From a virus (lineage: Duplodnaviria; Heunggongvirae; Uroviricota; Caudoviricetes): a DNA stretch of 12,679 bases. The stretch lies in IMG/VR virus record IMGVR_UViG_2693429557_000008, positions 1 to 12,679 of that record, one strand, 5' to 3'. Below, in pieces: positions 1 through 12,679 of the stretch (its first letter is position 1; each line of letters starts with the position of its first letter). Below the pieces are notes generated by a model. The model worked only from the letters and a program-made list of their open reading frames with translations, did no database searches and was not told the DNA's origin. The position numbers and the translations under genes were made by a program.

Positions 1-26
1 TTATCGAATACCTCGGTTTACAGGAA
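1..26 (+). other. Invertase crossover site 1 (gix/cix/hix-like 26-bp site, ttatcgaatacc-tc-ggtttacaggaa) lying inside the tail-fibre reading frame
   Basis: Two imperfect 12-bp half-sites flanking a central TC, resembling hix/gix half-sites (TTATCnAAnACC) as I recall them. An exact inverted copy lies at 2953-2978 and a 2-mismatch inverted copy at 4944-4969. The site is read through in frame as I-E-Y-L-G-L-Q-E-T. Confidence 0.8.
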
Positions 27-971
27 ACGGTAAATCAGGCTTCTGGCGCATTACAGAAAAACCAGAACGGCGCAGATATTCCGGGGAAAGATACCTTCAC
101 CAAAAATATTGGTGCCTGCCGCGCATATAGCTCATGGCTGAATATTGGTGGCGATAGTCAGGTCTGGACAACCGCGCAATTTATTTCGTGGCTGGAGAGT
201 CAGGGAGCATTTAACCATCCTTACTGGATGTGCAAAGGCTCATGGGCTTATGCAAATAATAAGGTCATTACAGATACAGGTTGCGGAAATATTTGTCTTG
301 CAGGTGCTGTGGTGGAAGTTATTGGCACTCGCGGCGCAATGACCATACGCGTTACCACGCCGAGCACGTCCAGCGGTGGCGGAATTACTAACGCTCAATT
401 CACTTATATTAATCATGGTGATGCTTACGCTCCTGGCTGGCGACGAGACTACAACACGAAAAATCAACAACCTGCATTTGCTTTAGGGCAAACAGGAAGC
501 ACTGTCGGAAATGATAAAGCTGTTGGCTGGAACTGGAATAGCGGGGTCTATAACGCAAACATTGGTGGCGCATCGACATTAATCCTCCACTTCAATATGA
601 ATACGGGGAGCTGCCCTGCTGTACAGTTCCGCGTGAATTACAGGAACGGCGGTATTTTTTATCGTTCAGCGCGTGATGGTTATGGCTTTGAAGCTGACTG
701 GTCAGAGTTTTACACCACAACCCGCAAACCCTCTGCGGGAGATGTTGGTGCATATACGCAGGCAGAATGTAACTCAAGGTTTATTACAGGTATTCGCCTT
801 GGTGGTCTGTTATCTGTTCAGACATGGAATGGTCCCGGATGGTCTGACAGGTCAGGTTATGTTGTTACCGGTTCCGTTAACTCAAACAGAGATGAACTAA
901 TTGATACAACTCAGGCAAGGCCAATTCAGTATTGCATTAATGGGACGTGGTATAACGCGGGGAGTATTTAA
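1..971 (+). CDS. Tail fibre protein, variable C-terminal segment A (5' end outside window; constant N-terminal part presumably upstream)
   Basis: Open frame from position 3 to TAA at 969-971. It begins inside the crossover site ([12 protein letters not shown]...) and ends with ...RPIQYCINGTWYNAGSI, a C-terminal motif shared with cassettes B and C. A tfa gene follows 2 nt downstream. Confidence 0.85.
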   Translation, partial: IEYLGLQETVNQASGALQKNQNGADIPGKDTFTKNIGACRAYSSWLNIGGDSQVWTTAQFISWLESQGAFNHPYWMCKGSWAYANNKVITDTGCGNICLAGAVVEVIGTRGAMTIRVTTPSTSSGGGITNAQFTYINHGDAYAPGWRRDYNTKNQQPAFALGQTGSTVGNDKAVGWNWNSGVYNANIGGASTLILHFNMNTGSCPAVQFRVNYRNGGIFYRSARDGYGFEADWSEFYTTTRKPSAGDVGAYTQAECNSRFITGIRLGGLLSVQTWNGPGWSDRSGYVVTGSVNSNRDELIDTTQARPIQYCINGTWYNAGSI

Positions 972-973
972 CG

Positions 974-1507
974 ATGATGCACTTAAAAAACATTTCTGCT
1001 GGTAATCCTGAAACAAAAGAGCAATACCAGCTAACGAAACAATTTAACATCAAATGGCTTTATACAGAGGATGGGAAAAACTGGTATGAGGAACAAAAGA
1101 ACTTTCAGCCTGATACGTTGAAAATGGTCTATGACCACAACGGCGTTATTATTTGTATTGAAAAGGATGTTTCAGCAATTAATCCGGAAGGCGCAAGCGT
1201 CGTTGAGGTTCCTGATATTACAGCAAATCGCCGGGCTGATATTTCAGGTAAATGGATGTTCAAAGATGGCGTAGTGATAAAGCGAACTTATACCGGGGAA
1301 GAGCAGAGGCAACAAGCGGAAAATGAAAAGCAAAGCCTGCTACAGCTCGTCAGGGATAAAACCCAGCTATGGGACTCACAGCTACGGCTGGGCATTATTT
1401 CCGACGAGAATAAACAAAAATTAACCGAGTGGATGCTCTATGCGCAGAAGGTCGAATCCACAGACACCTCCAGCCTGCCAGTAACGTTTCCCGAACAACC
1501 AGAATGA
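974..1507 (+). CDS. Tail fibre assembly chaperone (Tfa) for cassette A
   Basis: ATG ATG at 974, 2 nt after the fibre stop, with GGGGAG upstream. The N-terminus MMHLKNISAGNP...DGKNWYEE...FQPDT is the conserved Tfa N-domain, paralogous to the two - strand tfa genes. Ends TGA at 1505-1507. Confidence 0.9.
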   Translation: MMHLKNISAGNPETKEQYQLTKQFNIKWLYTEDGKNWYEEQKNFQPDTLKMVYDHNGVIICIEKDVSAINPEGASVVEVPDITANRRADISGKWMFKDGVVIKRTYTGEEQRQQAENEKQSLLQLVRDKTQLWDSQLRLGIISDENKQKLTEWMLYAQKVESTDTSSLPVTFPEQPE

Positions 1508-1731
1508 GAGAAGGCCCGCTATCGGGCCTTAATTTTTATTCAGGCTTTTGTGGCCATTCAGGATTTGCCGTATCCACACGGCTGACCAGAACACTGTAGC
1601 GTTCCCATGCTTCCAGTCGTGTGCGTTCCTCGTCCGTCGCCATATTCAGCCTGACAGCGCGTTCCAGCGGCTGGATGACTGATTCAGCTTCGGAAAGCAA
1701 TGCGGCCTTTTGTGATTCGGCCTGTTGTTGC
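1273..1731. repeat. Direct repeat copy 1 (~459 bp, ~98-99% identical to 3141-3599): tfa 3' end, terminator and 3' end of the convergent tfa
   Basis: Aligned by eye at a constant offset of 1868 bp. The only differences seen are about 6 substitutions clustered around the terminator. Confidence 0.85.
1511..1538. terminator. Bidirectional rho-independent terminator between convergent tfa genes
   Basis: aaggcccg-ctat-cgggcctt: 8-bp GC-rich stem with 4-nt loop, followed by a T-run on the + strand and preceded by an A-run, so it is U-rich on both transcripts. Confidence 0.65.
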
Positions 1732-2063
1732 AGTTCCTGTTCTGTATATTCCCTCTTTACTACTTTACCATCCAGAAACATCCATTTTCCGTTATTGTCT
1801 GCGTGACGATTTGCCGTAATATCAGGAACTTCAACTATGCTTAGCCCTTCAGGATTAATAGTTGAAACGTCTTTACTGACAGCAACGATGATGTTGTTCT
1901 CATCGTAAGCAATTTTTATGGTGTCTGGCTGAAAATTCTTTTGTTCCTCATACCAGTTTTTGCCATCTTCGCAAAAGAGCCATACCACGCCCGCTTTTTT
2001 AGTTAGCTGGTATTGTTCCGGTGTTTTCGGATTCCCGGCCTTAATATTTTTCAGGTGCATCAT
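1536..2063 (-). CDS. Tail fibre assembly chaperone (Tfa) for cassette B
   Basis: The track ORF 1536..2099 starts at TTG; the conserved [12 protein letters not shown] start is the ATG at 2063, one nt after the cassette B stop. Its C-terminal ~65 aa are identical to the tfa at 3404..3931. Confidence 0.9.
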
Positions 2064-2064
2064 C

Positions 2065-2978
2065 TTAAACACTCCCCACGTTGTACCATATTCCCCCAAT
2101 CAATTTCTGAATTGGCCTTCTGGCAACAGTGTCGACAATATCATCCGCATTGCTGTTAATTGCGGCTGTTAAAACATAACCTGACGCATCGCCAAAGCCG
2201 TAGTCGCGCCATACGTTTTTATATTCAATGCTGCCAAGACGAATATCCCGAACGACATGATTATGCAGCCATGTGCTTAACCAGTTGTTTTCCCACACTG
2301 AACCATAAATATCGCCACTAGACGCAACTTGCGCACCACTTCCCAGCGCAAATCCCCCATCTGTTTTAAAAATGAAATCACCACCACCATCTGAACCGTT
2401 ATTAATATGAACACCATCACCACCGTTATCTTTCCACAAAAACATACGAATTCTTCCGTCTTCGTTGGCGAATGTAATGTGGTGGCGGTAATTACTTTTT
2501 AATCTAAAATTGCTGCCATTAGATTCAATATCTTTATAAAGATGTAATCCTAACTCATCAATATGTCCGATGCGCGAACCATTTGAATAGAAGCTAATAA
2601 TACCATCTCCATCTTGCCTAAATCCGGTGTCGTTATCTCCCAGAACAATGGAGTTTTCACCCAGTGCGTTATCAGTAGCTCCAATAGCTAGACCTCCTTT
2701 AATTTTGGCCCCGTGGCTGACAGATATAGCACCTGTTCTCAGATTTATAGCGAATGGCCTTAATGGGCCGATATTACCGTTTTCGCCTTGTCCTTCAGCC
2801 GTCGGAATGAAATGAAGAAAATCTTCTGAACGACGGAAAATTAGACCGAAGGTATCATTGAAAATTCGCAGCGCATTCACCGTGCCAATTTTCAGTTCTC
2901 CGGTCATTTTATCGCCGGAACGCTGAACGGCGTTACCAGCCTTGTTTACCGTTTCCTGTAAACCGAGGTATTCGATAA
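2065..2978 (-). CDS. Tail fibre alternative C-terminal cassette B (silent in this orientation; no start codon or full constant region of its own)
   Basis: The frame runs from crossover site 2 ([17 protein letters not shown]...) to TAA at 2065-2067 and ends ...[18 protein letters not shown]. The track ORF 2065..3201 extends upstream only by reading through the constant-region fragment and the antisense of a tfa fragment. Confidence 0.8.
2953..2978 (-). other. Invertase crossover site 2 (inverted orientation, 26/26 identical to site 1)
   Basis: The reverse complement of 2949-2978 equals window positions 1-30 exactly. Confidence 0.85.
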
Positions 2979-3131
2979 CGGCAGCAACGGTCGATTTCGC
3001 AAGAATATCCCGCCCGACTTTTGTCAGGGTTGCCAGGCTGGCGACATCATTCCCCGTAAAATACGGAAACTTGCCTGCCGCAGTAGTAAGTCCGGCCAGC
3101 GCCGTCAGGGTGGCATCTTTCGGTTGCTTAC
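2979..3131 (-). pseudogene. Fragment of the tail-fibre constant region (3' ~150 bp) abutting site 2 in inverted orientation
   Basis: In frame with cassette B on the - strand: ...[48 protein letters not shown] followed by IEYLGLQ at the site. It has no start codon and ends abruptly at the boundary of the 459-bp repeat. Confidence 0.7.
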
Positions 3132-3140
3132 CCGCAAGCG

Positions 3141-3375
3141 AGTGATAAAGCGAACTTATACCGGGGAAGAGCAGAGGCAACAAGCGGAAAATGAAAAGCA
3201 AAGCCTGCTACAGCTCGTCAGGGATAAAACCCAGCTATGGGACTCACAGCTACGGCTGGGCATTATTTCCGACGAGAATAAACAAAAATTAACCGAGTGG
3301 ATGCTCTATGCGCAGAAGGTCGAATCCACAGACACCTCCAGCCTGCCAGTAACGTTTCCCGAACAACCAGAATGA
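3141..3375 (+). pseudogene. Truncated tfa gene (3' 235 bp, identical to the 3' end of the tfa at 974..1507)
   Basis: 3141-3375 appears base-for-base identical to 1273-1507 by eye. It encodes only the C-terminal ~77 aa (…KRTYTGEEQRQQAENEKQ…PVTFPEQPE). The track ORF 3124..3375 has no Tfa N-domain. Confidence 0.8.
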
Positions 3376-3378
3376 AAC

Positions 3379-3405
3379 AAGGCCCGATATCGGGCCTTAA
3401 TTTTT
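3379..3405. terminator. Bidirectional rho-independent terminator (second copy)
   Basis: aaggcccg-atat-cgggcctt followed by TTTTT. It is part of the 459-bp direct repeat; the stem is conserved and the loop differs by one base. Confidence 0.65.
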
Positions 3406-3931
3406 ACTCAGGCTTTTGTGGCCATTCTGGCTTTGCCGTATCCACACGGCTGACCAGAACACTGTAGCGTTCCCATGCTTCCAGTCGTGTGCGTTCCTCG
3501 TCCGTCGCCATATTCAGCCTGACAGCGCGTTCCAGCGGCTGGATGACTGATTCAGCTTCGGAAAGCAATGCGGCCTTTTGTGATTCGGCCTGTTGTTGCT
3601 GTTCGTCAGCCGTATAAATCCGTTTAACCACAGCTCCGTCCTTAAACATCCACTTACCGGAATCATCAGCACGACGATTAGCTGTAATATCAGGAACCTC
3701 AACGACGCTATAACCTTCAGGGTTAAGCGTGGAGGCATCTTTGGTGATGGCGACAATAATATTATTTGCATCGTAAACAATCTTTATTGTGTCTGGCTGA
3801 AAGTTCTTCACTTCCTCATACCAGTTTTTTCCGTCCTCAGAGTAAAGCCAGATGACTCCGTGCTTCTTTGTTAACTCATACTGCTCCACTGTTTTAGCAT
3901 TACCTGCTTTTATGTTCTTTAAGTGCATCAT
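3404..3931 (-). CDS. Tail fibre assembly chaperone (Tfa) for cassette C
   Basis: ATG ATG at 3931/3928 ([14 protein letters not shown]...), one nt after the cassette C stop. The track ORF start at 3964 is likely an upstream extension. It resembles e14 TfaE-type chaperones as I recall them. Confidence 0.9.
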
Positions 3932-3932
3932 A

Positions 3933-4961
3933 TTAAATACTCGCCACATTATACCAAGTGCCATTTATATACTTTTGCACTGGCCTGTAATGAACGCCTG
4001 CAATATTATCGGCAGAGTTTTTTCCGGTATCCTGTACGTTAATCCCCGTCAGTACATAGCCTGACGGGCACTGAAAATTCCATGTTTGCCAGTTGTTCAC
4101 TCCATAATATTGCTGTGAACCAAGTCGAACATCTTTCACATATCTGGAATCAAAATTGCCATAGTTGCCGGGAATAACTTGCGAGCCGCAAAGCCAGTTC
4201 CCGTTATTATCCATGTACGCCTGACCATCGGTGCCATTGGCTGTCCTTGAGTTATTAATCATGTAGATGCCAAATTGCTTATTTCCCAGACCGCCAATCA
4301 TAAATTTGCGGTCGGCATGGTCCTGACGGAGCAAAGCCTGAGCACCATCAGTGGATACCGCATTACGTCCCAAAATAACATTCTGGTCACGCATATGAAT
4401 CCACATGCCGGTACTACTGTTAATTGCAAAACGGTTTGCAAATATATCCCCTGTAACATCAAGACCATGCCCCATGCTTATCCGGCCAGTTCTGAGATTA
4501 AGCGTAAAGGGGCGTAGTGGCCCTATATTACCATTTTCCCCTTCATTCTCTCGTGTAGGGATGATATGCAGGCATTCTTCAGAACGACGAAAAATGGCAC
4601 CAAAAGATGAATTAAATATCCTCAGTGCATTGACTGTCGATATTTTCACTTCACTGCTGAAAAGGGCTTCAACAAGAACAGACAAAGCATTCCATTTAAG
4701 ATTCATCAGGTCTTTAGGCCGGGTGCCAATGATGCGGTGTCTCCATTTGAAATATTCATTGCCGTTGTTGCCTGTTTCAAACCACATGTAGGAATCGGTG
4801 TCTGCATCCGAATTATTTTTAAACCCAATCTTTGCCCAGTCAGTATTTCGAATCCAGGCAAGGATTGAGTCGTTTTCAAAAGTAAGTCCACCGGACAACG
4901 TATCGCCATTTTTTTGCACGGCGTTACCAGCCTTGTTTACCGTTTCCTGTAAACCGAGGTT
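3933..4961 (-). CDS. Tail fibre alternative C-terminal cassette C (silent in this orientation)
   Basis: The frame is open from just inside crossover site 3 to TAA at 3933-3935. The track M at 4919 is actually an in-frame GTG (Val) within ...[17 protein letters not shown].... Ends ...[20 protein letters not shown]. The upstream in-frame stop TAA (4962-4964) sits in the outer arm of site 3. Confidence 0.8.
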
Positions 4962-4969
4962 TTAGATAA
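4944..4969 (-). other. Invertase crossover site 3 (inverted orientation; variant outer arm ttatctaaaacc, same central TC)
   Basis: The reverse complement of 4940-4969 is ttatctaaaacctcggtttacaggaaacgg, matching site 1 at 28 of 30 positions. The inner flank (4921-4939) is identical to the flank of site 2. Confidence 0.8.
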
Positions 4970-5023
4970 TGGCCGTTTCCGGCCTGCATGGCATGATTTG
5001 CGCTTTTGGACGGGAGATTCAGC

Positions 5024-5611
5024 GTGCTGATTGGCTATGTAAGGGTATCAACAAATGACCAGAATACAGACCTGCAACGAAACGCTCTTGTTTGTGCAGG
5101 ATGTGAACAAATATTTGAAGATAAATTAAGCGGGACAAAGACAGACCGACCGGGATTAAAACGCGCTTTAAAGCGCCTTCAAAAAGGTGACACGCTGGTT
5201 GTCTGGAAACTGGATCGCCTCGGGCGAAGCATGAAACATCTGATTTCTCTCGTCGGGGAACTACGGGAGCGAGGAATTAATTTTCGCAGTCTGACCGACA
5301 GCATAGATACATCTTCTCCAATGGGGCGTTTTTTCTTCCACGTGATGGGTGCCCTGGCTGAAATGGAACGTGAATTAATTGTTGAACGTACACTGGCCGG
5401 ACTGGCGGCAGCACGCGCACGGGGGCGCACAGGCGGACGTCGACCGAAGCTGACAAAAGAACAGCATGAGCAAATAGCAAGGCTGATCAAAAACGGGCAC
5501 GACAGAAAACAACTGGCAATAATTTACGGCATTGGTATATCGACGATTTATCGTTACCACCCCGCAGGAGAATCAATCGGAACAATAGAGAAGAGTCAGG
5601 AAACAAAATAA
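5024..5611 (+). CDS. Serine-recombinase DNA invertase (Pin/Gin/Cin/Hin family)
   Basis: MLIGYVRVSTNDQNTDLQRNAL... with the catalytic Ser in the YVRVST motif and a C-terminal HTH region. A GTG start at 5024 has GGGAGA 6 nt upstream; the track ORF begins at an upstream TTG at 5006. Ends TAA at 5609-5611. Confidence 0.93.
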   Translation: MLIGYVRVSTNDQNTDLQRNALVCAGCEQIFEDKLSGTKTDRPGLKRALKRLQKGDTLVVWKLDRLGRSMKHLISLVGELRERGINFRSLTDSIDTSSPMGRFFFHVMGALAEMERELIVERTLAGLAAARARGRTGGRRPKLTKEQHEQIARLIKNGHDRKQLAIIYGIGISTIYRYHPAGESIGTIEKSQETK

Positions 5612-5640
5612 CCGCTAATCTGACCATTAGCGGTTTTTGT
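5611..5640. terminator. Bidirectional rho-independent terminator between invertase (+) and U (-)
   Basis: accgctaat-ctgacc-attagcggt: 9-bp stem with 6-nt loop, followed by TTTTTGT on the + strand and by a U-rich run on the - strand transcript. Confidence 0.7.
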
Positions 5641-5646
5641 GTTAAA

Positions 5647-6141
5647 TCAGAACAACCCTTTAACTGAACTGGCCGCGCTGTTAAGGGATGATGTTACCTT
5701 ATCTTTGAAGCCGGACAGCATATCGCTGAACGATGAGGATTGCAGGCGCTCCCGCAAATCCTCATCACAGCGTTCAAGAGTCAGTGAAAATTCTATCTTT
5801 TTCGCCTTACCGTAGCGATCAAACTCGGAGCGGGTCGTATTCGTTTCGGTCAGGACATACATGCCGTAAATCTGCCCGACGCCATCAATCAGAGGCCAGG
5901 GTCGTCCTGTATACGCCTGCGTGGTCAGCAGCGACAGCGACACTTCGCCACCTGTAATTTCAGGATAAAGCACACCAGAAAGAACGATGCGCTCATCACC
6001 TGCACCGATATACTGCCAGCTTGCCGAACGGTTAACGCGTTCATTTTTCACATGCCGCCAGCTTTTGTTTTGCTGTAACTGCTGATGCGGCAATGTACGC
6101 AGCTCAAAAACAAACATGCCGTAGATCATCATCATGGCCAT
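5647..6141 (-). CDS. U: Tail protein U homologue (P2 gpU-like)
   Basis: About 160 aa, immediately downstream of the tape measure gene, with a …SWRH…LSGVL.PE.TGG… pattern I recall from gpU. The start is ambiguous among ATGs at 6141, 6135 and 6132; GAGGAG at 6144-6149 favours 6135 or 6132. Confidence 0.8.
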   Translation of the reverse strand: MAMMMIYGMFVFELRTLPHQQLQQNKSWRHVKNERVNRSASWQYIGAGDERIVLSGVLYPEITGGEVSLSLLTTQAYTGRPWPLIDGVGQIYGMYVLTETNTTRSEFDRYGKAKKIEFSLTLERCDEDLRERLQSSSFSDMLSGFKDKVTSSLNSAASSVKGLF

Positions 6142-6147
6142 GACTCC

Positions 6148-8955
6148 TCAATCTTTATCGTAAAAACTGCCACGCCCGGCACGGGCGCGCCGTTCCATTT
6201 CTGCCCTGACCATTTCACCGACCAGTTTCGCCAGTTCGCGGGGATTCTGCGTAACAACGTTATGCAGATGAACATGAATTTCACCACCAAATCCGGAGGC
6301 AACAGGCTCCCGGTTACGGGAAGTTACAGGAACTGATGCCACTGGAGAGCGTATGGCCTCCGCCACCGGGCGGGAGCTGGCCGCAACAACAGGGACCAGC
6401 GCCGGAGGCAGCGGAGCCGGGACCACGGGTGTGATATTAATTGCGGGGGCAGGCTTACTGACCTGCGCAATCTTCCGCTCCTGCCACTCCCCACGAACAG
6501 CAAGTGCGCGGGGCAGGTTCTTAAAGACAATATCGCCGGGGCCAATGCGTTTTTTCGTCTCATCAACCAGCTTACCTGTGTTATCAGCAATTTTGCTGAG
6601 TCTGCGTAGCGTCCCGGTATTGCTGTCTGTGAGCGGTTTGTTGTCTTTGGGTTTATCACCTCCGGTGCCATTGCCATTTTCCACAGGCTTCGGCGGATTG
6701 ATTTTCGCCAGGTCCCCCTGAAGCAAGGCAACCTTGTCCTGAAGAATGGCCGCACGCTGTGCGTCTTCGATTTTCTTGCGCGCCCTTTCCGCTTCATCCG
6801 GAAGGACGCCAAGTTTTTCAAGTATCCACGCCAGCGTATCCAGTAGCATTTTTGCAGGTGTCAGAACAAGTTGTAACGCACCGCCAAGAACGTTACCGAA
6901 TATCTCGCCAGCACTGGCACATTTATCCAGCGTTTCCTTGCTGGACTCCATCGGTGACAGCAGCGATTTAAACCAGTTAAAGACCTGAATAATCCCATCG
7001 CGCACGACATCAAAAACAGGGCCAAACCGTTCAAAGGTTTCGCGCAACGGGGTCAGCCTTTCCATAATCCCGCTGAACACCCCGGCAAAAAATGCCCTGA
7101 TGGGATCCCAGTATTTCCAGATAAGAACGGCAGCTCCGGCAAGCGCAGCCACGATAAGACTAACCGGACTGAACAGCGCCCCGATAGCGCCACCAAGTAA
7201 AGAAACGGAACCCGTCACCATTCCCCATAATGCAGGCAGAACCCTGACAACATTCATTGATTCGGTCAGGAGAGAAAAACCGAGACGCAACGTAGCCAGC
7301 TTCCCGTGAAGCACCCCAATAACCAGAGACAACGAACCAACCGTTGCTGTTGTCGCCAGCAGTGCGCCTCCCGCTATCAGTAACTGGCGCGTCAGTGCCG
7401 GGTGGGCCTGCGCCAGCGCCGTCACCTTTGAGACAACCCGCGTGAGCCACTGCGTGACAGAACGCAGCGGACCGTCAACCAGATCACTGATGCGAATACG
7501 CAGACCTTCCCATGCACTGCCGAGTGATTTCAGGTTGCCATCAAGGTTATTGGCCATAACCTTTGCCGTGCGTTCTGCCTCACCGCGCGCGCCTTCAAGT
7601 TCTTTTCTCAGTTTGGCTAAGAAGCCGTCACCTGCCGCATCAACGAGGCCCATAAATGATGTGAAAGCCTCTTCTCCGGCAATGTCCTTAAAGAACGATA
7701 CCCGGTCAACCTCCCCGTATTTGCGGGTGGCTTTATAGAGATCGGCCAGCACATTCTCCATCGGGCGCATTTTGCCTTTGGCGTCAGCAACTGACACCCC
7801 CAGCTCTTTCAGTGCTTCTGCCGCTGCCTTTGGCGGTGATGACAGATTGGCCAGGCTTTTACGCAACGCTGTACCTGCATCACTCCCCCTGATACCCATC
7901 TTCGCCAGCACGCCCGCCATCGCTGCGGCCTGCTCCAGCGATATTCCCAGCTTACCCGCCACCGGACCTGCATATTTCATGGTTTCGCCCAGTGCGCGAA
8001 GGTCAGTGTTGGTACGGGTAAACGCTGCGGTAAGTGTGTCACCGACCCGGTCCATCTGGTCAGCAGAGAGGCCGAACTGCGTCAGGATATTGGAACCAAT
8101 ATCCGCCGTCTCGCCGAGGTCCATACCGCCAGCCGTTGCCATGCTCAGCACGCCGGGAAGCGCAGCCTGAATGGCCTGCGGTGTGAAACCAGCCATTGCA
8201 AGAAATGCCTGTCCACTGGCGGCATCGCCTGCGGTGAACTGCGTTTCAGAGCCAAGTTTTAACGCCTGCTCACGCAGCGCCTTAAACTGCGGGCTGTTTT
8301 TATCGATTCGCGTCAGTGCCTGAACACGGGACATCTCTTTCCCGAACCCGATAGCGGGCTGCAAAAAACGCCCGGCAGCATAGCCGCCCGCTGCCGCCGC
8401 ACCTGTTGCCAGCGCACCACCTGTTTTCAGTTTTCCCGCTGTTTCCTGCGCGCGTGAATACCGCTCACGCGCCTGCGTTACACGCGCAAGCGCCCGCCGT
8501 TCGCGTTCAAGCTGGTTGTTGTATTGTCCGGTGCGTCTGATGGCCTGCTGGATGGTGTTATCGCTGCCTGTCAGGGAAATGCCGTGGCGTTTCAGCTCTC
8601 CGCCAAGTTCCCGCATTTTCTGAATTTCCCGTGTGCGCGATTCATTCAGGCGTTCAAGCCGGGTGCTTAACTGCTGCATCAGCTTTTGTTGTTTTTCGCT
8701 GAGCACTGTACCCGTGCGTTGTAACTGATTAAGGGCGTTAAGCTGGCGTCGTGCTTTCACGATGCCCGCATCCGCTTTACTGACAGCGTCACGGGCGCGC
8801 TCAAATGAACGCGCCTGACGCTCGAGATTTTTGATCGCCCCCTGCGTTCGCTGGATGGAGTCACCAAACTGCCCCATCAGGCGGCGGGCGTTTTCGGCAG
8901 GCCGGGTCAGCCTGTCAACGGCGCTGAAAGCGACCCGGATATCAAGAGTCTTCAT
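6148..8955 (-). CDS. T: Tail tape measure protein (P2 gpT-like)
   Basis: A ~935-aa ORF, alanine/glycine-rich, with predicted hydrophobic segments and a proline-rich C-terminal stretch. It sits between E+E' and U, and its start overlaps the E' end. The track start at 8991 is GTG; ATGs at 8964 and 8955 are alternatives, 8955 having GGGAA 8 nt upstream. Confidence 0.88.
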   Translation of the reverse strand: MKTLDIRVAFSAVDRLTRPAENARRLMGQFGDSIQRTQGAIKNLERQARSFERARDAVSKADAGIVKARRQLNALNQLQRTGTVLSEKQQKLMQQLSTRLERLNESRTREIQKMRELGGELKRHGISLTGSDNTIQQAIRRTGQYNNQLERERRALARVTQARERYSRAQETAGKLKTGGALATGAAAAGGYAAGRFLQPAIGFGKEMSRVQALTRIDKNSPQFKALREQALKLGSETQFTAGDAASGQAFLAMAGFTPQAIQAALPGVLSMATAGGMDLGETADIGSNILTQFGLSADQMDRVGDTLTAAFTRTNTDLRALGETMKYAGPVAGKLGISLEQAAAMAGVLAKMGIRGSDAGTALRKSLANLSSPPKAAAEALKELGVSVADAKGKMRPMENVLADLYKATRKYGEVDRVSFFKDIAGEEAFTSFMGLVDAAGDGFLAKLRKELEGARGEAERTAKVMANNLDGNLKSLGSAWEGLRIRISDLVDGPLRSVTQWLTRVVSKVTALAQAHPALTRQLLIAGGALLATTATVGSLSLVIGVLHGKLATLRLGFSLLTESMNVVRVLPALWGMVTGSVSLLGGAIGALFSPVSLIVAALAGAAVLIWKYWDPIRAFFAGVFSGIMERLTPLRETFERFGPVFDVVRDGIIQVFNWFKSLLSPMESSKETLDKCASAGEIFGNVLGGALQLVLTPAKMLLDTLAWILEKLGVLPDEAERARKKIEDAQRAAILQDKVALLQGDLAKINPPKPVENGNGTGGDKPKDNKPLTDSNTGTLRRLSKIADNTGKLVDETKKRIGPGDIVFKNLPRALAVRGEWQERKIAQVSKPAPAINITPVVPAPLPPALVPVVAASSRPVAEAIRSPVASVPVTSRNREPVASGFGGEIHVHLHNVVTQNPRELAKLVGEMVRAEMERRARAGRGSFYDKD

Positions 8956-9471
8956 TGTCTGCATTCCCGCTGCGAAGTGCCGCCCGCTCACGCCAGCTAA
9001 CCACTTCGCCGGGCGTCATCATGAAGATTTCGGCGGGCGACCAGTTAAAAATGGCGGCAATATCCGCCACAAAGTCTTCTATGTGCTCAAAGCACACAAC
9101 CGTGATCAGGCTTCCGTCGCCTGTTCGTTCTTCTCGCCAGAGTCCGCACCGCTCAAAAAATTTACGGCAACCACACATAACTGAATAAAGTCACGGGATG
9201 CCATTTTTTTGATCGTCACTTCATCCAGTCGCGGTGATGTCACGCGTGACAGCAGCGTAAACATGGATTCCGCTTTCAAATTCAGCACATCAGACAGCGA
9301 CAAATCTCGCAGAGATCCAGCCTGCTCAATAGCCCCGGTGATCTCCACATACGTGATTTTTTCGCCGCCTCGCTCAATTGGTTGGGTAAGTTTTACGCCA
9401 CGCTCACTGGTTTCTTTCACAGTGTCAGCAACGACCGTGTTTTCGGTATCGATGTTTTTCGTCTCTTTCAT
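8942..9471 (-). CDS. E+E' fusion produced by programmed -1 ribosomal frameshift (slip at 9154-9160)
   Basis: The -1 frame is blocked by a stop at 9191-9193 and then open from 9190 to TGA at 8942-8944. The E-frame heptamer T-TTT-TTG lies inside this overlap. The predicted fusion is about 176 aa. Confidence 0.7.
9106..9471 (-). CDS. E: Tail assembly chaperone E (P2 gpE / lambda G analogue)
   Basis: ATG at 9471 with AAGGAG 7 nt upstream. The 121-aa zero-frame product ends at TGA 9108-9106. It lies between the tube gene and the tape measure gene and contains a TTTTTTG slippery heptamer. Confidence 0.8.
   Translation of the reverse strand: MKETKNIDTENTVVADTVKETSERGVKLTQPIERGGEKITYVEITGAIEQAGSLRDLSLSDVLNLKAESMFTLLSRVTSPRLDEVTIKKMASRDFIQLCVVAVNFLSGADSGEKNEQATEA
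9154..9160 (-). promoter_or_regulatory. Slippery heptamer T TTT TTG for the E/E' -1 frameshift
   Basis: The - strand reads aaT TTT TTG agc in the E frame (…V N F L S…). This is the heptamer I recall being reported for the P2 E/E+E' frameshift. Confidence 0.65.
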
Positions 9472-9525
9472 CAGGAAACTCCTTTCAGTCAGAGGCGACG
9501 CACTGCGCCGCCTGCATATTACTTA

Positions 9526-10038
9526 TCAGCCAAGCCCGAGCGCGGAACGGATGCGATCGGGCACAATGTCCCTGCCGTCCTTCCGGTAAATGAAGTTCAG
9601 CAGGTCAATCTCCCACAACGGGCGATCGTTAACACTCAGCTTGTAGTAGGTGTTTTTAATGGCGTAAGTGTGTGATGTGGCTTCGCCCTGTTTGGCTTCC
9701 CCCATATCAATTTCCGTCACACGTCCGCGCATTTCGACTTCATACAGGTCGCTTTCAGCGTCGGTGTAGTATTCACCCGCAAAACGCAGCAGCGTACCGT
9801 CAATCGTGCCGCCATACTTAAGGAACAGCTCACGAACTGCGCCCCCCATGACAAAGCTCGCATCAAGCGCGGAGTCATCCAGGCCGAGATCAATACTTAC
9901 CGCTCCCATCATGCCACCACCCCGGTAGCTGTCGGTTTTGCGCGTCAGCTTAGGCAGAGTGACGGACGTCACCTTACCCACTTCGTTTTCACCATCCACA
10001 AACAGCGTAAAAAAGCGAAGATGTTTTGGTACAGCCAT
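9526..10038 (-). CDS. FII: Tail tube protein (P2 FII-like)
   Basis: A 170-aa ORF whose ATG at 10038 overlaps the sheath TGA stop (shared A at 10038, translational coupling). Size and position match the P2 F_I-F_II pair. Confidence 0.88.
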   Translation of the reverse strand: MAVPKHLRFFTLFVDGENEVGKVTSVTLPKLTRKTDSYRGGGMMGAVSIDLGLDDSALDASFVMGGAVRELFLKYGGTIDGTLLRFAGEYYTDAESDLYEVEMRGRVTEIDMGEAKQGEATSHTYAIKNTYYKLSVNDRPLWEIDLLNFIYRKDGRDIVPDRIRSALGLG

Positions 10039-11222
10039 CAGGCACCTCCCAGCACCGCAAATGCGGGACCAAAGAATTCATCAGTAAACGACTGGTAAAG
10101 CTCCATGTCTTCCAGCGGGGGAACAGGCGTATATTTGTAGCGAATACGCACGCGCCCCTGACGTAAATTCGTGGTGCCGTTATCCACCACGTCATACCAG
10201 CACGACGCCCCAATCAGTTTCCCGGCAGTAACCAGTGAATCCAGTTTTGCCCTGATGGCACCGATAACATCCTTCACGTTCGCAGGCGTCAGTGGACTGT
10301 CGATGGTTTCAAACTGCGCTTCCGCAATTGAATCAGCCAGCACCTGTGCGGTTCGGGTATACACCTCAAAGATGTAGGCGTTCGTTTCCGGTGTGCGGTT
10401 GCCCCAGAAGCGGAACCCGTTGCGACGAATAATGGTCGTGATTTCTTTGTTGTTGAGGCTGTTGGCATCACTGTCTTCGGCCTGCAACGACCAGAACACA
10501 TGCCTGGACATCCCCAGCACATTTTTAACCGGAACGTTGGACAGCGATTTGTGCCAGCCCTGCTCATGGTCAATGTACGCACGAAGGCCGCACGCATAGG
10601 CAGGCGCGGGGAACGTTTCGTTTTTGCCACTTTTCGGGTTGTAGGCGATGAAGTCCGGCCATAAGAGCATCACCTCACGTTCGTTGAATTTCTGGCGGTA
10701 GGTAATTGCCTCAGCCATCGTGTTACAGTCATGACATGAGGCATACACAAACGCGCGCAGTTTACCCGCAATCACGCACAGGGATTTTGTCACCGCCTCC
10801 GTGTCCAGCTCCGGCGCGGCCAGAATACGCGGACGGTATCCGATGCTTTCATCCTGCTCTGCAACAAGCAGCGCATACATCCCCGTATAGCTGCCGTCAG
10901 ATTCAGAACCACCGATAACCAGTTGATCCTGCGTTTTTCCGTCTTCTTCTTTGTGTTCAGCCACGCGAACGACGATCACCTTTGTGCTCACCTGGTCTGC
11001 GATGGCCTTAAGCGCACGATAAAGCGTCCCCGTTGTTCCGCATTTTCCCAGCACGTCATTGACGCGGGGCAGCAGTGTGGGCTTGTTCAGCGGGAACAGC
11101 TCCGCGTCCGCATCATCCGCCGTTGCCACGATACCGATAACGCTGGAATCAACATCGTTAATCGCTGTTACCAGGTCGGTATTTTCCGTAACACGGGCAC
11201 CATGAAAACGAGTTTCACTCAT
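10038..11222 (-). CDS. FI: Contractile tail sheath protein (P2 FI-like)
   Basis: A 394-aa ORF with motifs I recall from P2-family sheaths (FPLNKP…, EQGWHK.LSNV, RRNGFRFWGNRT, YTRTAQV, YKYTPVPPLE). ATG at 11222 with AAGGGG 8 nt upstream. Confidence 0.93.
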   Translation of the reverse strand: MSETRFHGARVTENTDLVTAINDVDSSVIGIVATADDADAELFPLNKPTLLPRVNDVLGKCGTTGTLYRALKAIADQVSTKVIVVRVAEHKEEDGKTQDQLVIGGSESDGSYTGMYALLVAEQDESIGYRPRILAAPELDTEAVTKSLCVIAGKLRAFVYASCHDCNTMAEAITYRQKFNEREVMLLWPDFIAYNPKSGKNETFPAPAYACGLRAYIDHEQGWHKSLSNVPVKNVLGMSRHVFWSLQAEDSDANSLNNKEITTIIRRNGFRFWGNRTPETNAYIFEVYTRTAQVLADSIAEAQFETIDSPLTPANVKDVIGAIRAKLDSLVTAGKLIGASCWYDVVDNGTTNLRQGRVRIRYKYTPVPPLEDMELYQSFTDEFFGPAFAVLGGA

Positions 11223-11379
11223 AGCTTCAACCCCTTGTATCCGTTAAATGATTCGGCAACAATCATCACCCACCACGCGCGTAATCTCACCCCTGCGCCA
11301 TTCTCCCGCCACGGCGACAACAAAAAGCAGTAACCCCCTCCGCACGCACATGCGACCATGCCACACAGGGAGGGAGCAG

Positions 11380-12489
11380 ATGACCGACACCACCATGCAA
11401 TTGCTCAGTCAGGGCACAGACCCCGTGAAAATGCCGGATTTTGATATTCTCGCGGAGGGTAAAACGCTGTCAGGCGTGGCAGAGCGCCTGATGAGCCTGT
11501 CACTGACCGACAACCGGGGATTTGAGGCGGACCAGCTCACCATCACGCTGGATGATGCGGATGGTCAGTTGCAGCTACCGCCACGGGGCGCGCGCCTGAC
11601 GGTTCTCATTGGCTGGAAGGGAGAACCGCTGACAGAAAAAGGCACTTACATTGTTGATGAAATCGCTCACGAAGGACCGCCGGACAGGCTGACTGTTTCA
11701 GCCAGAAGCGCAGATTTTCGGGCTGAATTTAACGTTAAACGTGAGGTGTCCTGGCATGATGTGACCGTTGAGCGTGTGGTATCCGCCATCGCTCATCGGT
11801 ATGGTCTGAAACCGCAAATCAGCGAAATGCTGATGGATATCGAAATCGACCACGCCGACCAGACCGAAGAAAGCGACATGTCCTTCCTTACGCGCATGGC
11901 GGAAATGCTGGGCGCAATCACCACGGTAAAAAGCGGTAATCTGTTATTCATCATGCCCGGTGGTGGCGTGAACGCACAGGGCCAGCCGTTGCCCTCGTTC
12001 GCCATCACACGCAGCAGCGGCGATCGCCATCAGTTCCGCATTGCTGACCGCGAAGCGTATACGGGGGTACGCGCTTACTGGCTTGATCTTAATTACGGGA
12101 AAAAGAAAAAAGTCAGCGTGAAACGCCGCAAACCGTCAAAACCAAAAAAGGAGAAAAGCAGCAGCCGGGAAGGCGACTATATGGAAGGTGCGGAAGGCAA
12201 CGTGTTTGTGTTACGCAAAACTTATCAGAACGAGCAGGCAGCAAGACGTGCAGCGGCGGCAAAGTGGCAGCAGCTACAACGCGGAGCCGCATCATTCTCC
12301 ATCACACTGGCGCATGGACGTGCAGAACTCTACCCCGAAATGCATGGCACGGTAACAGGATTTAAAAGCGAGATTGATAATCAGGACTGGATTATTGCAA
12401 AAGCCGAGCACACCATTGATAACAGCGGCTTTACCACGCAGCTTGAGCTTGAGGCAAAAATCCCGGAATGGATAGCAGAAACAGAGTGA
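11380..12489 (+). CDS. D: Tail protein D homologue (P2 gpD-like late tail gene)
   Basis: The ORF track opens at 11248, but the ATG at 11380 has GGGAGGGAG upstream and gives MTDTTMQLLSQGTDPVKMPDFDIL…LTDNRGFEADQL…RSADFR…SWHD…, matching the gpD pattern as I remember it. It includes a lysine-rich low-complexity insert (KKKKVSVKRRKPSKPKKEK). Confidence 0.85.
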   Translation: MTDTTMQLLSQGTDPVKMPDFDILAEGKTLSGVAERLMSLSLTDNRGFEADQLTITLDDADGQLQLPPRGARLTVLIGWKGEPLTEKGTYIVDEIAHEGPPDRLTVSARSADFRAEFNVKREVSWHDVTVERVVSAIAHRYGLKPQISEMLMDIEIDHADQTEESDMSFLTRMAEMLGAITTVKSGNLLFIMPGGGVNAQGQPLPSFAITRSSGDRHQFRIADREAYTGVRAYWLDLNYGKKKKVSVKRRKPSKPKKEKSSSREGDYMEGAEGNVFVLRKTYQNEQAARRAAAAKWQQLQRGAASFSITLAHGRAELYPEMHGTVTGFKSEIDNQDWIIAKAEHTIDNSGFTTQLELEAKIPEWIAETE

Positions 12490-12638
12490 GCAACTTAAAT
12501 GTATTAACTCAGAACGGATCAACACACTCACAACATAGAGTCAATATAGCTGCTCGCTTTGTTCCAGCAAGGATGCCTATTTCTAAGGAAAAACAGAGCA
12601 GAAACATATGGTGTTTTCCTACCTGACATCAGGGGTGG

Positions 12639-12679
12639 TAGACTGGCCCCCTGAATCTCCAGACAACCAGTATCACTTA
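12639..12679 (+). mobile_element. Left terminal inverted repeat of an IS2-like insertion sequence (truncated by window end)
   Basis: tagactggccccctgaatctccagacaaccagtatcactta matches the IS2 left end as I remember it (TAGACTGGCCCCCTGAATCTCCAGACAACCAATATCACTTA…) with one difference. Only about 41 bp are visible, and this is from memory, not a search. Confidence 0.6.

Follow-up and report, generated by a model that had tools for sequence, protein, structure and literature searches.

In P2-related phages the canonical F operon is co-directional from FI through D, an arrangement that is also found in 186, and Ogr/Delta-dependent activation involves a zinc-finger protein acting through the alpha subunit of RNA polymerase. 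The P2 record gives the order as H-G-(Z/fun)-FI-FII-E-E′-T-U-D-ogr, all in one direction, as the first-pass annotation of our locus had stated, and the F operon is transcribed from the single promoter pF. At another locus of P2, pP/pO, a single activator site is annotated, and each of the two transcripts starts 55.5 bp from the centre of its dyad; this pair, experimentally mapped according to the record, drives the packaging and head operons. Within Xuanwuvirus (Peduoviridae), P88 and the Citrobacter phage phiSM are inducible and plaque-forming (PMC5285337, PMC6456863).

We analyzed a 12,679-nt stretch of viral DNA (IMG/VR record IMGVR_UViG_2693429557_000008), referred to here as the window, and its features are listed in Table 1. 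The window encodes fibre and tail genes only. The phages nearest to it are complete and possess head genes, whereas an R-type tailocin, a headless P2-like tail cluster, has no capsid, packaging or replication genes. Pfam matches identified a complete P2-type contractile tail module set, comprising FI, FII, E/E′ with a −1 frameshift, T, U and D, the match on E being weak. Amino acid identities to P2 are 45% for the sheath, 44% for the tube, 47% for U and 48% for D (range 42-50%), and ~32% for E and T. The strand assignment of the first pass was borne out: FI to U lie on the minus strand (5647-11222), opposite D and the invertase gene, which are both on the plus strand. Whereas the P2 F operon is co-directional throughout, here FI-U is inverted and D forms a separate divergent unit, and the window has no single co-directional F operon from FI through D. 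Its membership in Peduoviridae stands nonetheless, because gene order is no formal criterion of the family. The slot after G, which holds Z/fun in P2, holds the invertase module in the window. E spans 9106-9471 on the minus strand (stop at 9106) and the GpE′ domain spans 8942-9178 on the same strand (E′ stop at 8942); reading the sequence directly, we found a −1 frameshift heptamer, T-TTT-TTG, at 9160-9154 in X XXY YYZ phase, the same heptamer logic as in the P2 annotation. The start of T was placed at ATG 8955 by homology to P88 gp45. A longer D open reading frame starting at 11248 was rejected in favor of ATG 11380, because the latter has a strong ribosome-binding site upstream (GGGAGGGAG), is the start annotated in P88, and is the point from which the alignments to Pfam and to homologues begin.

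Table 1. Features of the window, with positions counted from its first nucleotide.
Feature	Position	Strand	Evidence or remark
gix-like crossover site A	10-30	+	exact 21-mer ACCTCGGTTTACAGGAAACGG; inverted-repeat pairs I4, I6
gix-like crossover site B	2949-2969	-	21-mer and inverted-repeat search
gix-like crossover site C, adjoining the invertase gene	4940-4960	-	21-mer and inverted-repeat search
Serine DNA invertase, Gin/Hin/Pin/Cin type	5024-5611 (ORF start 5006)	+	Pfam Resolvase, 1.5e-50; HTH_7
Bidirectional intrinsic terminator hairpin	5610-5635	both	between the invertase and U stops; inverted repeat I19
gpU tail protein	5647-6141	-	PF06995, 7.7e-39
gpT tape measure protein	6148-8955 (ORF 6148-8991)	-	PF10145, 1.4e-57
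E and E+E′ tail assembly chaperones	8942-9471	-	PF06528 GpE on −1 frame; Phage_TAC_7 weak on E
gpFII tail tube	9526-10038	-	PF04985, 1.9e-46
gpFI tail sheath	10038-11222	-	PF04984, PF22671, PF17482
Predicted −10 hexamer GATGAT, leftward late promoter P_F	11262-11267	-	43.5 bp from dyad centre
Predicted Ogr-type activator dyad TCT-N12-ACA, then ACAAAAA	11302-11319 (centre 11310.5)	both	conserved in 13 lineages
Predicted extended −10 TG-C-GACCAT, rightward late promoter P_D	11351-11359	+	conserved columns in dyad-anchored alignment
gpD baseplate hub / "late control D" protein	11380-12489	+	PF05954, 5.1e-17
Cargo slot downstream of D	12505-12679	+	sequence comparison

Comparison with other phages and prophages placed this layout in a well-populated lineage. 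Window positions 5000-12679 are colinear with the inducible phage P88 at 96.5% identity over 98% of their length (7.7 kb), and further matches extend across the fibre region; these values come from 12.7 kb of the element and are not the genome-wide identities by which the genus Xuanwuvirus is demarcated. The Xuanwuvirus phages (P88, P884B11, 500465-2, 520873, PhiR44_2, Chuche and phiSM) are 94-97% identical in nucleotide sequence over 5000-12500 and agree with the window in the order and strands of the genes, in where the terminator lies and in the 157-bp length of the FI-D spacer. Order and strands are likewise identical in the annotations of P88 and phiSM, and gpD is 96.5-98.9% identical to gpD of P88-group phages. 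When we required at least 80% of the stretch 5000-12679 in one colinear place, the same layout was found in 1104 of 5426 complete E. coli genomes and likewise in 13 phage records. The Salmonella phages SEN4 and SEN5 (Senquatrovirus) and the Klebsiella phages 3LV2017 and Kp48xx (Reginaelenavirus, Reipivirus), whose gpD is 62-71% identical to the window's and which are without the invertase module, also have an inverted FI-U, a divergent D with ogr, and a dyad in the spacer; their spacers are 177-217 bp long, compared to 157 bp in the window, and in some the left half-site is TGT. A census of phages whose gpD identity reaches 62% or more yielded 48 records, of which 47 were also in our FI table (CP052639 was not scorable), and in all 47 scored FI directly precedes D and has the other orientation. 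The taxa with the inverted layout include Xuanwuvirus, Reginaelenavirus, Reipivirus and Senquatrovirus, as well as phages phiT5282H and KSP20. Likewise, among 22 genome loci, all 19 that reach FI, from about 14 genera of Enterobacterales, read U- T- E- FII- FI- / D+. The canonical co-directional order was found at gpD identities of 53% or lower, in P2, Cartapus, vB_YenM_42.18 (Yersinia), ST437-OXA245phi4.1 (Klebsiella) and phiCTX. The first-pass annotation had implied that the order is unusual, proposing either a lineage-specific architecture or a rearrangement; as the intact, plaque-forming relatives (P88, phiSM, SEN4/5, 3LV2017 and others) all share it, synteny decides for the lineage-specific architecture. 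Judged from these sequences, the layout is the fixed, normal one of a large known P2-related group (P88, phiSM, SEN4/5, Klebsiella 3LV2017 and many prophages), and, being ordinary for the lineage, it is therefore not a rearrangement in this genome.

The explanation that we consider very probable as a whole joins a P88-type prophage tail end, one old and fixed FI-U inversion, and an Ogr-type bidirectional promoter between FI and D. The window would represent the tail end of a P2-related prophage of the P88 type (Xuanwuvirus), and the segment consisting of P_F and FI-FII-E-E′-T-U would have been inverted once, and then fixed, in an ancestor shared by a large clade of Peduoviridae from Enterobacterales, with its endpoints in the non-essential slot after gene G and at the U/D junction. 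U would in consequence have become convergent with the cargo after G, here the Gin-type invertase and the fibre cassettes, with a bidirectional terminator closing the junction; FI and D would diverge from a short spacer; and D, with ogr behind it in relatives, would have become a separate rightward unit. The two junctions are as the first-pass annotation had described them: the convergent one carries a hairpin with a 10-bp stem and T-runs on both strands, and the divergent region between FI and D measures exactly 157 bp (11223-11379).

No co-directional gene or promoter was found for 5.7 kb upstream of D, and the nearest plus-strand gene ends at the terminator. This logic, together with a conserved, predicted promoter-like architecture in the spacer, supports the earlier proposition that D needs a promoter of its own, and most likely D does have its own late promoter. 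While a strict search for TGT-N12-ACA returned no site in the FI-D spacer, the Ogr-type dyad search suggested in the first pass did succeed once diverged spacers were compared and TCT was allowed; the predicted site has one half-site mismatch, with TCT in place of the canonical TGT on the left. The dyad is kept as T(G/C)T-N12-ACAA in 13/13 representative lineages, although these loci are related and its conservation is not fully independent evidence. Both −10-like hexamers lie 43.5 bp from the dyad centre. On the P_F side 13 diverged loci have an xAxxAT hexamer at this distance, give or take 1 bp, and on the P_D side the TG, A(-11) and T(-7) are conserved columns of the dyad-anchored alignment of the 13 lineages. 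Transcription would start near 11255 on the minus strand (P_F) and near 11366 on the plus strand (P_D), which gives D a very short predicted leader of ~14 nt. The predicted hexamers are weak (GATGAT, GACCAT), and a generic sigma-70 scan reported no promoter inside 11223-11379, a result expected of activator-dependent promoters that does not in itself provide positive evidence. No −35 element was found. A partial dyad near −55 and a −10 without a −35 are the attributes of Ogr/Delta-dependent P2-type late promoters, here with the one half-site mismatch. In P2 pP/pO, too, a partial dyad with one mismatch (TGT-N12-CCA) sits midway between the divergent −10 elements, as TCT-N12-ACA does in the window, and the geometry of the window dyad equals that of the P2 pP/pO and pF sites; the P2 pair serves the packaging and head operons, whereas the window pair is predicted to serve the sheath operon and D. 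A box of the same type, TCT-N12-ACAACAAAA, with the same two-sided layout, is present in the divergent terminase/scaffold spacer of P88. The 157-bp spacer would be a compact bidirectional late promoter with a single dyad at about −55 of both P_F and P_D, and we infer that both promoters depend on Ogr and that D is co-transcribed with ogr.

Conservation of the dyad could be due to P_F alone. The inversion would then be fixed all the same, but expression of D (and ogr) would be due to an early or constitutive promoter or be governed by an unrelated regulator. That the P2 record annotates a non-late promoter of ogr's own is in line with this, as are the weakness of the right-hand hexamer and the conserved GC-rich block, CGCGCGCG, that precedes it. 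We nevertheless consider it unlikely: the conserved positions on the D side are fixed at 43.5 bp in 13/13 lineages amid diverged surroundings, the two-sided layout recurs at the P88 terminase/scaffold spacer, the spacer geometry matches the mapped P2 pP/pO, and D, as a structural component of the tail, is required late.

Downstream of D, the window and P88 differ. An Ogr/Delta zinc-finger gene (PF04606, 5.2e-14) lies 43 bp after D in P88, where the RefSeq record has no ogr gene just after D, and ogr follows D on the same strand in nearly all relatives, wherever downstream sequence is present (locus L024 ends at the D stop). In the window ogr is not reached, because after D the sequence diverges into a cargo slot, with sequence that in other elements precedes a PIN-domain cargo gene (12505-12640), and then into an IS2 end (~12641-12679).

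At the other side of the tail block, the 21-mer ACCTCGGTTTACAGGAAACGG occurs in three exact copies in the window, compared to zero expected, and three fibre-tip/chaperone cassettes lie between the three gix-like sites; P88 has two cassettes. The first-pass annotation had placed the fibre genes on the plus strand, which applies to one cassette (228-1507) and fails for the other two (1536-3201 and 3404-4919), both on the minus strand. The invertase gene starts at the position annotated in P88, and over its 5′ ~400 bp it shares 92-97% identity with the invertase genes of Mu and Mu-like phages. With an HTH_7 serine recombinase and inverted crossover sites bracketing alternative cassettes, the module has the composition of an invertase-controlled tail-fibre switch, and the invertase occupies a variable cargo slot at the convergent junction. 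The suggestion that the layout arose when a fibre/Pin module like that of e14 was joined to a P2-like tail is not supported, as the inverted block and the invertase occur separately: no invertase accompanies the inverted block in SEN5, in the Klebsiella phages Kp4871-3 and Kp4848-1 or in an E. coli O111 prophage, and phage Cartapus has an invertase, yet shows the canonical tail order. Since each is found without the other, the inversion does not depend on the invertase module.

The same observations bear on the idea that the neighbouring serine invertase flips the FI-U block, so that the orientation of the block is one of two switchable states. An active-looking invertase gene does abut the block, and enzymes of this family act on inverted sites several kb apart; however, the block (5640-11230) does not lie between crossover sites, as no flanking inverted repeat or gix-like site was found for it in the window and all three sites are at or to the left of 4960. 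Its orientation is the same in every relative scored and is common to lineages that have no invertase, while Cartapus has one with the canonical order, and flipping the block would part FI from its promoter region. We give this idea almost no credence. A recent rearrangement or assembly artefact confined to this genome, which would have inverted the tail block of a P2-ordered prophage, could appeal to the difference from the P2 order and to local changes in this prophage (the IS2 end and the extra fibre cassettes), but it can practically be dismissed, as the junctions, including the identical 157-bp spacer, recur in independently sequenced phage isolates and in the 1104 complete E. coli genomes, and are found also in diverged genera; a shared assembly error across platforms and species is implausible.

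The reading that we favor, an old inversion fixed in the lineage, concerns the layout that P88-type phages and related phages ordinarily have. We found no mention of inversion, orientation or synteny in the publications describing P88, phiSM and SEN4/5, and neither the D-ogr operon with a shared Ogr box nor the inversion as a synapomorphy was found stated there; a literature search on Xuanwuvirus, or on Peduoviridae and inversion, returned only a paper on fibre-segment switching in P88-like prophages. The chances seem to us evenly balanced that the ancestral inversion of FI-U gave rise to another bidirectional late promoter, with one Ogr box for the sheath operon and a new D-ogr operon, uncoupled a positive feedback loop of ogr from the tail structural operon, and constitutes a clean synapomorphy of a multi-genus Peduoviridae subclade.

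The main import of these results is for correct annotation: as the standard P88-type map, the layout should not be taken to indicate that a prophage is rearranged or defective, and the ogr gene missing from the RefSeq record of P88 is a modest annotation point. The inversion is a handy marker for a multi-genus subclade of Peduoviridae, and the FI-D spacer offers a compact, testable case of one activator site predicted to serve two divergent late promoters.

Open reading frames and Pfam scans placed a P2-type tail module within the window (see table). The layout described in the first-pass annotation, in which FI through U form a minus-strand block between a serine invertase gene and D on the plus strand, was right at all coordinates of importance, including the 157-bp FI-D spacer. 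Between the invertase and U stops lies a hairpin (10-bp stem, T-runs on both strands). The E/E′ pair retains the P2 style of -1 frameshift heptamer, T-TTT-TTG, which spans 9160-9154 and is correctly phased (X XXY YYZ). The gpD frame is already open at 11248, and the start at ATG 11380 has a strong ribosome-binding site upstream (GGGAGGGAG) and agrees with the P88 annotation.

Tail-module, spacer and switch-region features, in window positions
Feature	Position	Strand	Remark
Gix-like site A	10-30	+	Identical crossover site, tail-fibre switch region
Gix-like site B	2949-2969	-	Identical crossover site, tail-fibre switch region
Gix-like site C	4940-4960	-	Identical crossover site, tail-fibre switch region
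Serine invertase	5024-5611	+	ORF listing, Pfam
Hairpin	5610-5635		Between invertase and U stops
gpU	5647-6141	-	ORF listing, Pfam
Tape measure T	6148-8955	-	Mechanical ORF extends to 8991
E / E+E′	9471-9106 / to 8942	-
Tube FII	9526-10038	-	ORF listing, Pfam
Sheath FI	10038-11222	-	ORF listing, Pfam
FI-D spacer	11223-11379
Leftward -10-like hexamer	11262-11267	-	GATGAT/GATTAT-type, towards FI
Conserved dyad	11302-11319		Centre 11310.5
Predicted rightward extended -10	11351-11359	+	TG-n-xAxxxT; window TG-C-GACCAT, towards D
gpD	11380-12489	+	ORF listing, Pfam

The P2 record confirmed the co-directional order claimed for P2 (H, G, FI, FII, E, E′, T, U, D) and has ogr on that strand too; the non-essential Z/fun, between G and FI, has the opposite orientation. 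Window positions 5000-12679 are 96.5% identical to Escherichia phage P88 (Peduoviridae, Xuanwuvirus) over 98% of the length and 94-95% identical to six more P88-group phages, Citrobacter phiSM among them, and at least 80% of this interval was found in one colinear place in 1104 of 5426 complete E. coli genomes. As annotated in their deposited records, P88 and phiSM have the gene order and strands of the window. Both are working phages: P88 can be induced and lyses E. coli hosts (PMC5285337), and phiSM gives plaques as well as lysogens on K-12 (PMC6456863). The phiSM record is mislabelled: the gene it calls "ogr" is D, and the one it calls "late control gene D" is the sheath gene.

Using gpD and FI as tblastn queries against 50,697 phage records, we obtained 48 records with a gpD at least 62% identical, one of which (CP052639) was absent from the FI table and hence left unscored. 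In all 47 scorable records FI was on the opposite strand, ~155-230 bp upstream of D; these included Xuanwuvirus, Enterobacter phage phiT5282H, Serratia phage KSP20, Klebsiella Reginaelenavirus and Reipivirus, and Salmonella Senquatrovirus (SEN4/SEN5). The complete pattern (U-, T-, E-, FII-, FI-, then D+) was mapped directly in representative phages. A bacterial scan with one genome per species gave 22 loci, and the pattern from U- to FI- followed by D+ was present in 19 of the 19 that reach FI (Salmonella, Trabulsiella, Edwardsiella, Kluyvera, Erwinia, Enterobacter, Mixta, Pantoea, Kosakonia, Citrobacter, Izhakiella, Brenneria, Klebsiella, Rouxiella and one record labelled Vagococcus). At every scan locus with downstream sequence, D is followed by a same-strand Ogr/Delta gene. 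Two loci, in records titled Vagococcus sp. (L010) and Planococcaceae MAG (L027), encode a gpD 98% identical to that of the window, probably through Enterobacterales contamination or mis-binning; in both, ogr lies ~1.3-1.5 kb away from D, consistent with an insertion in the D-ogr cargo slot.

The gpD identity values have a gap between 62% and 53%, and all five checked relatives at or below 53% (P2, Cartapus, vB_YenM_42.18, ST437-OXA245phi4.1 and the Pseudomonas outgroup phiCTX) have the canonical co-directional order. The simplest reading is that the FI-U segment inverted once, anciently, at the base of an Enterobacterales subclade and has been fixed since. The first-pass annotation had offered a lineage-specific architecture or a rearrangement, and had held that a uniform order among related intact phages would make the layout ordinary. 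The synteny comparison found the inverted order in all scored phages with a gpD at least 62% identical; the architecture is lineage-specific, with P88, phiSM, SEN4/5, Klebsiella phages and prophages alike, and a rearrangement is unsupported, the layout being common to P88-type phages and relatives.

Also unsupported is the suggestion of an e14-like fibre/Pin module joined to a P2-like tail, as the inversion is independent of the invertase. The inverted block occurs without an invertase in SEN5, in Klebsiella phages Kp4871-3 and Kp4848-1 and in an E. coli O111 prophage, in which an acetyltransferase occupies the invertase slot, while Cartapus has an invertase yet keeps the canonical order. The exact gix-like 21-mer has three copies in the window (0 expected), all at or left of 4960, and a search of the window for inverted repeats flanking 5640-11230 found none. 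The invertase is thus ruled out as cause or switch of the FI-U inversion, and, given these relatives and site positions, the G-U junction acts as a slot for variable cargo, much like the position of Z/fun in P2. The slot holds an invertase module, a serine O-acetyltransferase or nothing.

The switch region (1-4969) has three fibre-tip and chaperone cassettes, whereas P88 has two, and beside site B, 2927-3143 is a partial, 97.7%-identical copy of the constant portion of P88 fibre gene H. This arrangement suggests the gain of a second invertible module by recombination, producing a shufflon-like three-way switch. Near-identical palindromic hairpins after the fibre-chaperone genes, at 1511-1530 and 3379-3398 (AAGGCCCG.TATCGGGCCTT), are probably terminators travelling with each cassette.

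As the 5.7 kb before D contain nothing co-directional, and the closest upstream gene on the plus strand has a terminator at its end, D needs its own promoter. The annotation had pointed to the FI-D spacer as a place to look for Ogr-type dyads, and when the spacers of 13 diverged lineages were aligned on a shared motif, a conserved dyad, T(G/C)T-N12-ACAA, was evident, with -10-like hexamers 43.5 bp (within 1 bp) either side of its centre; outside these elements the spacers have mostly diverged. The conserved columns of the D-side element are TG, A(-11) and T(-7), and the dyad centre lies at ~-55.5 of both predicted promoters. In the divergent P2 promoters pP/pO, one annotated activator site likewise has both transcription starts 55.5 bp from the dyad centre, and P2 pF has the same geometry. 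The divergent terminase/scaffold spacer of P88 shares the box type (TCT-N12-ACAACAAAA), flanked by hexamers to the left and right, and P88 has an Ogr/Delta zinc-finger gene of 86 aa (PF04606, 5.2e-14), without annotation in the RefSeq record, that lies 43 bp after D (27523-27783 of P88 locus L001; 34476-34736 of the record).

Together, the conserved geometry, the likeness to pP/pO, the terminase/scaffold box and the Ogr/Delta gene lead us to infer a bidirectional late promoter in the FI-D spacer, in which a single predicted Ogr box would co-activate a leftward promoter for FI to U and a rightward one whose transcript would take in D and probably ogr. Against this model stand the half-site TCT instead of TGT, the weak -10 hexamers, a predicted D leader of merely ~14 nt and the relatedness of the compared loci to each other. 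A conserved GC-rich block (consensus CGCGCGCG), at 11340-11353 in the window and shared by the 13 aligned loci, immediately precedes the predicted D-side -10 and lies outside what a simple promoter model explains; a TCACG ~15-20 bp left of the dyad is also conserved.

No ogr is present in the window, which ends at 12679 within IS2. Downstream of D the window diverges from P88 at ~12505; 12505-12640 is identical to the sequence that precedes a PIN-domain cargo gene in E. coli O111-type prophages, and ~12641-12679 is the terminal ~40 bp of IS2, which has matches at thousands of E. coli genomic sites, with an IS3-like IS2 family transposase as the adjacent annotated gene. The PIN-domain gene (1.5 kb), possibly a defence or toxin cargo, lies between D and ogr in some E. 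coli prophages, e.g., O111 RM9322 (L031 14001-15713). Of this gene the window has only the upstream region, cut by the IS2 inserted in the cargo slot, so that ogr is not seen after D.

The inverted tail layout is already known from sequenced P88-type and related phages and, being ordinary there, is a feature of low interest. As far as could be found, the papers on P88, phiSM and SEN4/5 contain neither the promoter model nor the use of the inversion as a subclade marker; what this analysis adds is a specific model, open to testing, of the promoters in the FI-D spacer and the inversion as a marker of a multi-genus subclade.
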